Shown in pieces: positions 35,898-38,178 of a stretch of 64,000 nucleotides of DNA. Position numbers and translations under genes: made by a program. Every line of letters begins with the position of its first letter. Position 1 is the first letter of the stretch. Under the pieces are notes generated by a model that ran no database searches, was not told the origin of the DNA, and saw only the letters and a program-made list of their open reading frames with translations. Source of the stretch: an uncultured Candidatus Saccharibacteria bacterium (lineage in GTDB: Bacteria; Patescibacteriota; Minisyncoccia; Phycocordibacterales; CAIZLB01); contig CAZSLF010000003.1 of NCBI GenBank assembly GCA_964607805.1, positions 3,190 to 67,189 on the forward strand. Direction: 5' to 3'.

Positions 35898-35968
35898 TGC
35901 GGGGAAGTGTAACAGTTGCATACAAGGCTCATAACCTTGAGGACTAGGTGCAATTCCTGGCTCCGCAA
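35898..35968 (+). tRNA. atypical tRNA-like gene with CAU anticodon (initiator-like ends)
   Basis: Acceptor TGCGGGG/CTCCGCA plus A. Anticodon arm CAAGG-CTCATAA-CCTTG. T arm CTAGG-TGCAATT-CCTGG. D arm poorly formed with no GG. Ends resemble fMet tRNA (..GCGGGG...CCGCAA). Confidence 0.45.
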
Positions 35969-36213: not shown

Positions 36214-36290
36214 GTCGACGTAGCTCAGTCGGTTAGAGCGGAGGACTCATAAGCCTCAGGTCGGTGGTTCGATCCCACCCGTCGACACCA
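36214..36290 (+). tRNA. tRNA with CAU anticodon (elongator Met or Ile2), CCA encoded
   Basis: GTCGACG-TA-GCTC-AGTCGGTTA-GAGC-G-GAGGA-CTCATAA-GCCTC-AGGTC-GGTGG-TTCGATC-CCACC-CGTCGAC-A-CCA. Confidence 0.9.
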
Positions 36291-36372: not shown

Positions 36373-37050
36373 ATGAATCAATCAAGCCAGTTAAACTCTC
36401 ACAAAGAACCTTGGTATTTTTCAAATCAAATCGCCGTCTCATCTCTGTCAGGTTGTGGTCGCACAACACTTCTTGATAACTTCAAAAAACATTTCGCAGC
36501 AAGTTGTTATCGGTATGTATCTGCAGGAGAAACGATGCGAACGATCGCATCTGGTAGAGGGCTTTCGATAGAACAACATGCTGCGAATCTTTGCGATAAT
36601 CCCAACCAGGGTATCGATGAGGGTCTCGATCAATGTGTTGCTGATTTTGGTCGGCAAAACTATGTGATTGGTGAAGGTCGGCTTTTGCATATTACATTCC
36701 CACGTGCTTTTAAGGTCAGACTTGTCTGTGATATTGATATTTGCGCGATGCGTCGCTCGGGTCAGGAATGTGGAGATGAATTCGAAGCTGTGAAAGCGGC
36801 CTTAATCGAAAGAAACAAAAACGATTGCCTCCGCTATGATTCGATCTATGGTCGTGCATGGAATTGGCCTGACCTTGCATTCGACTGTGTGTTAGACACT
36901 GGCTCAATTGGAAAGGATGATATGGTTCAAACCATATTGAAACTACACCGTGATTGGTGTTCCCGACTTGATCTTGTGGACAGGATTTTTCATGATATCT
37001 GTCATCCAACGTATCGACTCGATATGAATCGATTGCGTATTGGAAATTAG
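36373..37050 (+). CDS. cytidylate-kinase-like P-loop NTPase family protein
   Basis: P-loop-like SLSGCGRTTLL (Arg in place of the usual Lys). Overall kinase-like layout. Locally GC-rich. Terminator hairpin ACGCCG...CGGCGT at about 37081-37118. Confidence 0.5.
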   Translation: MNQSSQLNSHKEPWYFSNQIAVSSLSGCGRTTLLDNFKKHFAASCYRYVSAGETMRTIASGRGLSIEQHAANLCDNPNQGIDEGLDQCVADFGRQNYVIGEGRLLHITFPRAFKVRLVCDIDICAMRRSGQECGDEFEAVKAALIERNKNDCLRYDSIYGRAWNWPDLAFDCVLDTGSIGKDDMVQTILKLHRDWCSRLDLVDRIFHDICHPTYRLDMNRLRIGN

Positions 37051-37181
37051 AGTTGTGGTTTGATCTTCAAGTTCAACTTAACGCCGCCGCGTCCTAGATA
37101 GGACCGGCGTTTGTATTTTACAAAATAAATATAAGTAAATTGTAAGAGGTAGAAAATTTGACTTCATTTTAGAATGCATTA

Positions 37182-37901
37182 ATGCCAATGCATAGAGAAA
37201 TTAATAGGGATTTTTTTAAAGTGTGGAGTGGGGACATGGCGTATGTCTTAGGTTTTATGTTTGCAGATGGAAATATTATTAAGAATAATAGAGGAGGGTA
37301 TTATTTTGCTATTTATACTGCGGATGAGGAGCTTTTAATAAGAATGAGAACTAGTATGGGGTCTAGTCATAAAATTTCATTTAAAATGGGAAAGTTAGGT
37401 GGTTGTTACTCGATTCAAATAGGAAGTAAGGAAATGTTTAATGATTTAGGTAAGGTAGGGCTTACTCCGAATAAGTCAAAGAGAATGATATTGCCTGAAG
37501 TTCCAAAAAAATATTTAGGTGATTTTGTGAGAGGGTATTTTGACGGCGATGGACATGTTTGGGTTGGGCAAATTAACAAAAATAGAGAGAAAACTCAAAT
37601 GACAATACTGACGGGTTTTACAAGTGGTTCTTTGAATTTTTTAATCTCCTTAAAAAATATCTTGAAATCAGCTGGTATACGCGGAGGATGTATATATAAA
37701 TGTAAAACTGGCGAATACGGAAGACTTTCATTTTCTGTATTCGACTCTTTGAGATTATATGAAATTATGTATAATAGGCCACATACCCTATATTTGGATC
37801 GTAAAAAGATGGTTTTTGATAAATATAGGGTATTGACAAAACGATGCGGCTGTAGCTCAACGGTAGAGCACTCGCCTGTAGACTGGCAGCTTTTAGCTTA
37901 A
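37182..37901 (+). CDS. LAGLIDADG homing endonuclease (double-motif)
   Basis: Motif 1 YVLGFMFADGNI and motif 2 LGDFVRGYFDGDGHV. The last ~18 codons read through tRNA-Asp exon 1 and the first 22 nt of the intron. Confidence 0.85.
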   Translation: MPMHREINRDFFKVWSGDMAYVLGFMFADGNIIKNNRGGYYFAIYTADEELLIRMRTSMGSSHKISFKMGKLGGCYSIQIGSKEMFNDLGKVGLTPNKSKRMILPEVPKKYLGDFVRGYFDGDGHVWVGQINKNREKTQMTILTGFTSGSLNFLISLKNILKSAGIRGGCIYKCKTGEYGRLSFSVFDSLRLYEIMYNRPHTLYLDRKKMVFDKYRVLTKRCGCSSTVEHSPVDWQLLA

Positions 37902-38122
37902 AGGCTAATTGAAACTCTTTGGGATATCGGTGAAGGCTAAGTCTAGCAATAGATATGCGAATACCGAGGGAACTCCTTTTAATTAAGGAGAGCGCCGTAG
38001 AGACTAGATACCAGAGTACCTAAGTTTGCTTTGCAAATACGGTAAAGATATAGTCCATACTTATATGAAAATATAGGATTCAAGCACGCGAGAGGTCGTG
38101 GGGTCAGCACCCATCAGCCGCG
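37846..38122 (+). tRNA. tRNA-Asp (GUC) interrupted by a 205-nt group I intron in the anticodon loop
   Basis: Exon 1 GCGGCTG-TA-GCTC-AACGGTA-GAGC-A-CTCGC-CTGT (37846-37879). Exon 2 CAC-GCGAG-AGGTC-GTGGG-GTCAGCA-CCCAT-CAGCCGC-G (38085-38122). The joined loop CUGUCAC is the canonical Asp loop. Confidence 0.8.
37880..38084 (+). mobile_element. group I intron (tRNA-type, IC3-like), no internal ORF
   Basis: The 5' exon ends in U, which can pair as U.G in P1 (CUGU with GCAG at 37886-37889). The intron ends in G. Core strings CGUAGAGACUAGA and ACCUAAG match the Azoarcus/cyanobacterial tRNA intron cores as recalled. Confidence 0.75.
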
Positions 38123-38150: not shown

Positions 38151-38178
38151 GCCCACCCAAAAGTGGGTATTTTTGTTA
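38151..38178 (+). terminator. intrinsic terminator after tRNA-Asp
   Basis: CCCAC-CCAAAA-GTGGG followed by TATTTTTGTT. Confidence 0.6.

Follow-up and report, generated by a model that had tools for sequence, protein, structure and literature searches.

Can a group I intron that contains no open reading frame be moved by a nuclease gene that lies outside of it? This question is raised by a tRNA-Asp(GUC) locus of an uncultured Candidatus Saccharibacteria bacterium (GenBank assembly GCA_964607805.1, contig CAZSLF010000003.1). The locus was analysed in a stretch of 64,000 nucleotides, termed the window. Positions without a locus designation refer to the window, and related loci carry an L number. 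The tRNA gene is split by a group I intron, and a gene for a two-motif LAGLIDADG protein is situated immediately upstream, outside of the intron, with its 3′ end inside the tRNA gene. Judged from sequence comparisons, tRNA-Asp is probably the centre of a homing-endonuclease cassette, to which the intron is linked at a distance of 35 bp.

A single survey of these introns has been published (Nakagawa et al., mSystems 2026; bioRxiv July 2025; PMC13011429); it sought endonuclease genes only inside introns of >500 bp. It concluded that most tRNA introns are without such genes and rarely move. The paper does not mention adjacent free-standing nuclease genes, and the term “free-standing” has no occurrence in it. 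In the loci compared here, an endonuclease gene, intact or decayed, adjoins most of the intron-bearing tRNA-Asp genes. The constant place of the relatives of this gene suggests that the introns lacking an open reading frame (ORF) may be less immobile than published.

The endonuclease gene and its place at tRNA-Asp

Ten homologues of the endonuclease gene (45%-70% identical) were looked up without reference to the intron. All ten abut the 5′ end of a tRNA-Asp(GUC) gene, in the spacer between tRNA-Met and tRNA-Asp, and they do so in differing gene neighbourhoods. The arrangement that the initial annotation described for the window is thus not a one-off; it is the rule for a large family. The tRNA-Asp gene is intron-bearing at six of the ten loci (L003, L004, L005, L129, L130 and L134) and intron-less at four (L002, L128, L131 and L132). 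By comparison, tRNA-Asp introns are present in 3 of 95 complete Patescibacteria genomes (PMC13011429), the sampling frames of the two figures being different.

A search with an exact 17-nt motif of the intron core yielded L001 from genome contigs and at least 120 metagenome loci. Among the loci listed are 25 independent intron-bearing tRNA-Asp loci, and 21 of these have the endonuclease gene or a remnant of it. The gene is full-length in 11, cut by a contig end in 4 and reduced to a frameshifted or deleted remnant in 6; the other 4 loci have none. This LAGLIDADG family was found in none of the approximately 46 listed loci with a tRNA-Asn or tRNA-Tyr intron. In a tree of the introns, a single clade holds 22 of the 26 tRNA-Asp introns. 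The tRNA-Asp introns from loci lacking the gene are nested among introns from loci that possess it, a pattern that agrees with repeated loss of the endonuclease gene.

In about two thirds of the tabulated loci the stop codon of the endonuclease gene is formed by U8-A9-G10 of the tRNA. The remaining genes stop at +15 or +23 (in the D-arm), at -1, or 56-62 nt into the tRNA gene (the window and L003). In the window the frame extends 56 nt into the tRNA gene, over the whole of exon 1 (34 nt) plus 22 nt of intron sequence, and runs through the intron helix P1. An end of this frame before position 37846 had been named initially as the observation that would tell against an overlap; there is no stop codon before TAA 37899-37901, which lies in the loop of P2. 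The same-strand overlap of protein and tRNA genes, at first singled out as unusual, is a family-wide trait, and the long tail of the window gene is a different reading frame.

The protein has both of the LAGLIDADG motifs that the initial annotation had assigned to it, and both are invariant (Table 1). There are 1405 homologues at E ≤1e-3, of which the best 120 are mostly 218-225 aa in length and cover about 90% of the query. Exon 1 and the 22 nt of intron that follow it encode residues ~222-239 of the window protein. The homologues end before this tail, thus the last ~18 residues are not conserved, and they may be an accidental read-through without a function. An AlphaFold2 model (pLDDT 87.8, pTM 0.85; residues 225-239 are below 50) displays a predicted two-domain alpha-beta-beta-alpha-beta-beta-alpha fold. 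Foldseek gave 134 PDB matches at E ≤0.001, and every one of the 50 listed is either a LAGLIDADG enzyme or an intein-associated homing endonuclease. The best match is I-Tsp061I (PDB 2DCH, E = 6e-11), followed by I-OnuI, I-AniI and the bI3 maturase. I-Tsp061I is also the best match by sequence (E = 1.4e-6, identity ~21%). Values of pN are 0.2-0.3 and those of pS 0.65-0.84, with synonymous sites saturated. Judged by these distances the gene is under purifying selection, and the protein appears to have been kept functional over a long time.

A tRNA-Met is almost always present upstream of tRNA-Asp. The two are 62-261 nt apart at loci with no endonuclease gene or a degraded one, and 686-760 nt apart where tRNA-Met is directly followed by the gene. 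The gene is between these two tRNA genes at most related loci. In the window, a 225-aa P-loop kinase-like ORF (36373-37050; weak AAA_17 and cytidylate-kinase matches) is also present between tRNA-Met and the endonuclease gene. The syntenic loci L002 (2188-2808) and L003 (2260-2859) have a guanylate kinase instead, which gives no nucleotide alignment with the window's kinase-like ORF. A fourth tRNA with the anticodon CAU is found at 35898-35968 on the plus strand (Rfam, 48.7 bits); it has an unusual D-arm and is not called by ARAGORN. Related copies are near tRNA-Met in L003, L011 and L040. The flanks of L002 are 81%-82% identical in nt sequence to those of the window, and the endonuclease gene is 70.8% identical. 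This is not decisive for an exchange of the cassette between relatives, as the endonuclease gene may simply evolve faster.

Table 1. Positions of the tRNA-Asp cassette components and adjoining features in the window
Feature	Position	Strand	Evidence or description
tRNA-Met(CAU), conserved left neighbour	36214-36290	+	ARAGORN, Rfam
Degenerate tRNA-Asp-like element and -10-like box before the endonuclease gene	37146-37175	+	GAGGTAG-AAAATTTGA-CTTCATT-T-TAGAAT
Free-standing LAGLIDADG homing endonuclease gene, 239 aa	37182-37901	+	ORF; Pfam LAGLIDADG_3, E = 2.6e-8
LAGLIDADG motif 1, YVLGFMFADG, catalytic-position Asp29	37242-37271	+	A28, D29, G30 invariant in 18 homologues
LAGLIDADG motif 2, FVRGYFDGDG, acidic D121 and D123	37524-37553	+	F115, R117, G118, F120, D121, G122, D123, G124 invariant in 18 homologues
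Promoter-like TTGAGA-N15-TATAAT, in codons LRLYEIMYN, 70 nt 5′ of tRNA-Asp	37749-37775	+	Proposed tRNA promoter
tRNA-Asp(GUC), whole split gene	37846-38122	+	Exons and 205-nt group I intron after U35
tRNA-Asp exon 1	37846-37879	+	GCGGCTGTAGCTCAACGGTAGAGCACTCGCCTGT; acceptor 5′ strand, D-arm, anticodon stem 5′ strand, C32-U35; 3′ end CCUGU
P1	37876-37889	+	CUGU 37876-37879 pairs with GCAG 37886-37889; U35.G at 5′ splice site
Group I intron, 205 nt, ORF-less	37880-38084	+	P2 37893-37897/37904-37908; P7 GACUA 38002-38006/UAGUC 38051-38055; terminal G 38084
tRNA-Asp exon 2	38085-38122	+	CACGCGAG...CAGCCGCG; C36-C38, anticodon stem 3′ strand, variable loop, T-arm, acceptor 3′ strand, discriminator G
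T-loop GUCAGCA, non-canonical (G54, G58)	38103-38109	+	Direct reading
Terminator-like hairpin (38151-38168) and T-run, closing the endonuclease/tRNA-Asp unit	38151-38176	+	Conserved in L002

The intron and the interrupted tRNA

The intron boundaries proposed in the initial annotation, between positions 35 and 36 of the tRNA, are confirmed. Exon 1 ends in C32-U33-G34-U35, and exon 2 begins with CAC and does not encode CCA. When the exons are joined, the anticodon loop CUGUCAC and the stem CUCGC/GCGAG are restored, and ARAGORN shows the in-silico spliced sequence to be a 73-nt tRNA-Asp(GTC), a cloverleaf with the anticodon GUC. On the unspliced genomic sequence ARAGORN gives no tRNA at the locus, the intron option included. 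Exon 1 of L011 is identical to that of the window. A practical point is that a split tRNA of this type escapes standard tRNA finders and that the end of the endonuclease ORF falls inside the tRNA gene.

The pairing of P1 with its splice-site wobble and the terminal G of the intron had been read directly from the sequence. The wobble pair U37879.G37886 and the last intron base G38084 are invariant in 68 of 68 homologous introns, as are the CUGU and GCAG of P1. As the strands of P1 never vary, there is no covariation for or against this pairing. RNAalifold with the 68 introns yields 39 consensus pairs, 24 of them with compensatory changes, in P2, P3, P4, P5, P6, P8 and P9. P7 (GACUA/UAGUC) is present yet invariant. 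The spacing from P7 to the 3′ strand of P3 is 4 nt in the window intron, which leaves no room for P7.1/P7.2. Two strings that the initial annotation had linked with the catalytic cores of other introns are present, CGTAGAGACTAGA at 37996-38008 and ACCTAAG at 38018-38024; ACCUAAG is the 5′ strand of P8 and not a part of P7, which corrects the initial annotation. In the Rfam check suggested there, a local search with Intron_gpI (RF00028) finds the intron at 37863-38077 (E = 1.3e-11), with a score of 49.4 bits against a gathering score of 50. Thus a default Rfam scan misses it by 0.6 bit. The statement that the intron has no ORF also holds, the only ORFs that overlap it being spurious ones of 43-54 aa on the opposite strand.

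An intron at 35/36 is of an already known, published type. Group I introns were described at this site in tRNA-Asn, tRNA-Asp and tRNA-Tyr of Patescibacteria, with self-splicing in vitro reported for one tRNA-Asp and one tRNA-Asn intron and with 25 of 28 introns at 35/36 placed in subgroup IA by a covariance-model classification (PMC13011429). The window split gene (exons and intron) is 74% identical to the Paceibacteria tRNA-Asp of GCA_023898525.1, a complete genome in which the intron-bearing gene is the sole tRNA-Asp, and 60% identical to the tRNA-Asp that was spliced in vitro (both from PMC13011429). After in-silico splicing and use of ARAGORN, the host genes in the present collection are tRNA-Asp(GUC), tRNA-Asn(GUU) and tRNA-Tyr(GUA), and the intron is always 3′ of CUGU. 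A splice boundary two bases upstream, which results in Ala, Thr or Ser anticodons in many loci, was considered and rejected. The 3′ base there is A and not G in the window, and for this reason, together with the support from P1 and from the published introns, the 35/36 boundary was kept. The same two-base ambiguity, with Asp misread as Ala, has been described (PMC13011429).

The T-loop of the mature tRNA, GUCAGCA, had been noted initially as non-canonical, and it is real. It does not have the canonical T54-Psi55-C56 ... A58 form. Four other loci (L011, L040, L113 and L134), with introns 20%-27% diverged, have this T-loop as well, and in each it is accompanied by the short D-loop AACGGUA; it is a conserved variant of a lineage and no indication of decay. 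The T-loop of L003 is GGCGGCA. Discriminator G73, G10 and C38 are aspartyl identity elements. A direct reading shows all three in the window tRNA-Asp, and the discriminator G is found in 36 of 36 tabulated related tRNA-Asp genes.

Some further observations concern the ends and the integrity of these tRNA genes. Positions -2/-1 are A-T, or at least T at -1, nearly everywhere among the tRNA-Asp loci, whatever the endonuclease frame, in keeping with the U at -1 that bacterial RNase P is known to prefer. A cut by RNase P at the 5′ end of tRNA-Asp would strip the stop codon from most endonuclease messages. The tRNA-Asp of L064 (plus strand 765-1051) looks chimeric, with the 5′ acceptor strand GCGGCUG facing a 3′ strand, CGACCGC, of another allele type. 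It has a C5-A68 mismatch and a mismatch in the anticodon stem, its endonuclease gene is reduced to a remnant, and it may be a recombinant or a pseudogene. The 3′ ends of tRNAs are repeated ~130-290 nt downstream in L001 (tRNA-Met, minus strand ~633-420) and in L005 (tRNA-Asp, 3930-4225; the same in L006). These repeats resemble small insertions that duplicate a tRNA 3′ end, as integrating elements do.

Proposed mobility of the cassette and alternative explanations

Two short motifs associated with the endonuclease gene bear on its possible target and on the expression of the tRNA. The sequence TTGANN-N14-16-TATAAT is found at -46 to -73 in 23 of 36 tRNA-Asp loci, within the conserved codons L(K/R)LYEIMYN, and its typical form is TTGAAA-N15-TATAAT. 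It is the surviving piece where the rest of the endonuclease gene has been deleted (L046, L064, L098 and L111), and it is present in L001, which has no endonuclease gene. We infer that it is the promoter of tRNA-Asp. Transcription of the tRNA from within the last codons of the endonuclease gene would explain why degraded copies always retain this piece. A simple sigma-70 scan shows no promoter for the endonuclease gene or for tRNA-Asp; it is silent on the embedded box because the spacer is 15 nt.

The second motif precedes the endonuclease gene and has the form TGGTTAG-N9-CTGTCA[CT]-N3-5-TATAAT in relatives. It consists of the D-loop and anticodon-loop sequences of tRNA-Asp at their native spacing, and the stem positions between them are decayed to A+T. 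At least 12 of 14 template positions are matched in 10 of 22 loci, versus 0.4% of random 150-nt windows. This motif could be what is left of a tRNA 5′ part that the incoming cassette displaced, an operator mimicking the target of the enzyme, or both. It ends in CTGTCAC, the anticodon loop split by the intron, and points to a putative recognition site at about tRNA positions 16-38, which the intron would split.

The observed anatomy, conservation and association of the cassette point to a mechanism in which the enzyme most likely cuts tRNA-Asp genes and carries the intron along. The LAGLIDADG enzyme would cut a tRNA-Asp gene that has no cassette, and repair from a cassette-bearing copy would transfer the intron, located at the break or close to it. 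If resection extended further, the endonuclease gene, which lies 35 bp upstream, would also be transferred, and the conserved tRNA-Met and tRNA-Asp genes would provide the homology arms. The intron would then be mobile in trans by means of a gene outside of it, i.e. by collaborative or trans homing. That the enzyme may read D-loop and anticodon-loop bases of the tRNA-Asp gene is suggested by the decayed TGGTTAG-N9-CTGTCAC motif, kept between the promoter-like boxes of many relatives. The intron may also shield its own tRNA gene by splitting the recognition site.

Several observations weigh against this mechanism. A comparison with intron-less tRNA-Asp genes of relatives, suggested in the initial annotation, brought out the four loci L002, L128, L131 and L132, which carry the endonuclease gene next to a tRNA-Asp with an ordinary anticodon arm. 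Since four of ten endonuclease-linked tRNA-Asp genes are intron-less, the intron is not required. From position 8 to position 59 the L132 tRNA-Asp does not differ from the spliced tRNA of the intron-bearing L010, and the intron is therefore unnecessary for self-protection unless the specificities differ (the two proteins are 54% identical). Given the four intron-less partners, a role of the intron in immunity seems doubtful. D-loop changes are found in 3 of 4 intron-less and 10 of 28 intron-bearing alleles, numbers too small for a test. Distances between proteins and between introns are weakly correlated (Mantel r 0.34, p about 0.004), and in the pair formed by the window and L003 the introns are 8% apart and the proteins 50%. 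The nearest relative of each intron-less case is intron-bearing, thus at least four gains or losses of the intron have occurred in the lineage of the endonuclease. The upstream motif of the window itself is degenerate, with GGTAG at the right spacing and then CT-TCAT. Purifying selection with saturated synonymous distances is equally expected of a domesticated gene. The sample of loci is also biased, having been drawn with the exact 17-nt intron motif (at least 120 loci); none of the 134 loci has an intron-less tRNA-Asp that stands without the endonuclease gene, and hence there is no base rate for the association. The likeness to collaborative homing drawn in the initial annotation stands for the ORF-less intron and the adjacent endonuclease gene; the homing reading is not established by it, in view of the intron-less loci and the weak correlation.

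Nuclease genes of other types bear on the choice between explanations. Several unrelated ones end near or inside the 5′ end of intron-bearing tRNA-Asn and tRNA-Tyr genes: GIY-YIG genes at tRNA-Asn (L032/L048 and L047; Pfam E ~1e-16), a PD-(D/E)XK gene of the PF11645 type at tRNA-Tyr (L102; E = 2.5e-27) and a second LAGLIDADG_3 gene at tRNA-Tyr (L117). The ends of these genes are at -5 to +22 relative to the first base of the tRNA. HNH-like proteins (weak Pfam match) are encoded at five tRNA-Asn/Tyr loci. Broken tRNA-Asn 5′ segments are found upstream of the GIY-YIG genes, and several of the loci with other nucleases have recognisable tRNA-Asn 5′ relics. A further family, termed YxGEG, is present at eight loci, five with tRNA-Tyr (L023, L039, L069, L071 and L095) and three with tRNA-Asn (L014, L027 and L072). 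These proteins of 200-225 aa have an N-terminal helix-turn-helix and a conserved Y-x-G-E-G ... F-x-N-S/T-D block, and their genes end 2-38 nt before the intron-bearing tRNA. A copy in L001 (minus strand ~1350-680) ends ~50 nt before an intron-less tRNA-Met. Comparison with Pfam, NCBIfam, PDB and the LAGLIDADG-family profile gave no match beyond the helix-turn-helix; the proteins may be an unrecognised nuclease family. The intron-bearing tRNA-Asn of L053, L054, L068 and L074 is preceded by a sigma-70 (RpoD-like) gene, whose end is 33-39 nt away; in L043 the distance is 144 nt. This pairing, with no nuclease gene in between, is a conserved host neighbourhood in unrelated contigs.

One alternative to the cassette is that the endonuclease gene and the intron are two independent residents of the locus. 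The gene would be an “intron-less homing” element of the tRNA-Met/tRNA-Asp spacer, self-protected by its own insertion or by sequence variation. The intron would have come separately, e.g. by reverse splicing guided by the pairing of GCAG with CUGU, a sequence common to Asp, Asn and Tyr tRNAs, and would hitch-hike through the 35-bp linkage or by vertical inheritance. This agrees with the four intron-less loci, with the repeated gain or loss of the intron and with the weak coupling of the two histories. It also agrees with the presence of the same intron family, without this endonuclease, in tRNA-Asn and tRNA-Tyr, whose introns are interleaved in the tree. It is nevertheless rather unlikely: the intron is far more common at endonuclease-linked tRNA-Asp genes (6/10) than in complete genomes (3/95), nuclease genes of several unrelated families have come independently to the 5′ edge of intron-bearing tRNAs, and the upstream relic stops at the anticodon loop, which is the site of the intron. 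It is improbable that the protein has ceased homing and been domesticated, e.g. as a maturase for the intron, as a regulator acting on the tRNA-like operator, or as a mere carrier of the tRNA promoter, since decay and loss are frequent (6 remnants, 4 absent), which is what a selfish gene would show and an essential one would not. Domestication would be consistent with the long-term purifying selection and fixed position of the gene, with the structural likeness to I-AniI and the bI3 maturase and with the promoter-like box within the ORF. The catalytic acidic residues are invariant, though, a maturase role leaves the four intron-less loci unexplained, and a related intron splices in vitro without protein (PMC13011429).

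The odd T-loop and the ORF that overlaps the gene could hint that this tRNA-Asp is a decaying pseudogene, with the real tRNA-Asp elsewhere in the genome, but this is very improbable. G54 and G58 do break the usual T54-A58 pair, chimeric and mismatched copies exist, as L064 shows, and the inspection covers 64 kb of the genome. Against these points, the four loci with diverged introns also have the GUCAGCA loop, the short D-loop and stems that are fully paired, and the core and all helices of the window intron are intact; in published complete genomes the intron-bearing gene is the sole tRNA-Asp (PMC13011429).

The homing-endonuclease cassette at tRNA-Asp may be one example of a wider class, which is put forward here as a tentative possibility. 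Cassettes of this class in Patescibacteria would be directed at tRNA genes and consist of a nuclease gene and a regenerated tRNA 5′ part, with the intact tRNA following and a decayed 5′ relic preceding the gene. For tRNA-Asp the class would include reading of the D-loop and the anticodon loop, a copy of the site (TGGTTAG-N9-CTGTCAC) that cannot be cleaved and acts as an operator in the enzyme's own promoter, and an intron that splits the cassette's own site. At least four other families (GIY-YIG, PD-(D/E)XK, HNH-like and the second LAGLIDADG) would act likewise at tRNA-Asn and tRNA-Tyr. If the enzymes do cut tRNA genes, the abundant “ORF-less” tRNA introns of the phylum would be mobile in trans, and their persistence in very small genomes would have a selfish-element explanation.

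Comparison with known systems

A free-standing LAGLIDADG cassette anchored at tRNA-Asp appears to be undescribed in the searchable literature; the theme of a free-standing endonuclease together with an intron is already known from phages. The introns closest to that of the window are those of PMC13011429, which have the same insertion site, the same CUGU/GCAG P1 and the same boundary ambiguity. The window differs from them in the addition of an adjacent free-standing endonuclease gene. Compact group I introns of ~200 nt are also present in the anticodon loop of Azoarcus tRNA-Ile and of cyanobacterial tRNAs, and belong to subgroup IC3. The string GUAGAGACUAGA and strings like ACCUAAG are common to these introns and that of the window, but their insertion site differs from 35/36.

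Monomeric two-domain enzymes of the I-Tsp061I/I-DmoI type have two motifs in one chain of ~220 aa, as does the window protein. Those enzymes are encoded in archaeal rRNA introns, whereas the window gene is free-standing beside a bacterial tRNA gene. I-TevI represses its own promoter via an operator that resembles its homing site. In many members of the family described here a target-like sequence is likewise found between the promoter boxes of the endonuclease gene; unlike the I-TevI operator, this motif is a putative one and may simply be a relic of the displaced tRNA 5′ part.

Collaborative homing in phages was reportedly described by Zeng et al. and by Bonocora and Shub in 2009, for F-CphI with the cyanophage psbA intron and for the DNA polymerase intron of T3/PhiI. 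There, a self-splicing intron without an ORF is accompanied by a nuclease gene just outside the interrupted gene, as is the putatively self-splicing intron of the window. The window system differs in belonging to a cellular bacterium, in having a tRNA gene as its putative target and a LAGLIDADG enzyme, and in the place of the endonuclease gene, which is upstream and overlaps the tRNA. In addition, many genomes here carry the endonuclease gene without the intron. The term collaborative homing is in use (PMC3984707). The phage T4 gene mobE is reported to promote trans homing of the defunct I-TevIII intron (PMC2790892). Mobilisation of a neighbouring intron by a free-standing endonuclease through co-conversion is the likeness to the mechanism proposed for the window. 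MobE is an HNH enzyme directed at a protein-coding gene of a phage, and the endonuclease gene within the I-TevIII intron is dead, whereas the window intron has none at all.

In the classical mobile group I intron the endonuclease ORF is in a loop of the intron; in the window the gene lies upstream of exon 1 instead. If the proposed mechanism is correct, bacteria would supply many natural intermediates in the origin of mobile introns, in which a free-standing endonuclease gene has met an ORF-less intron before entering it.

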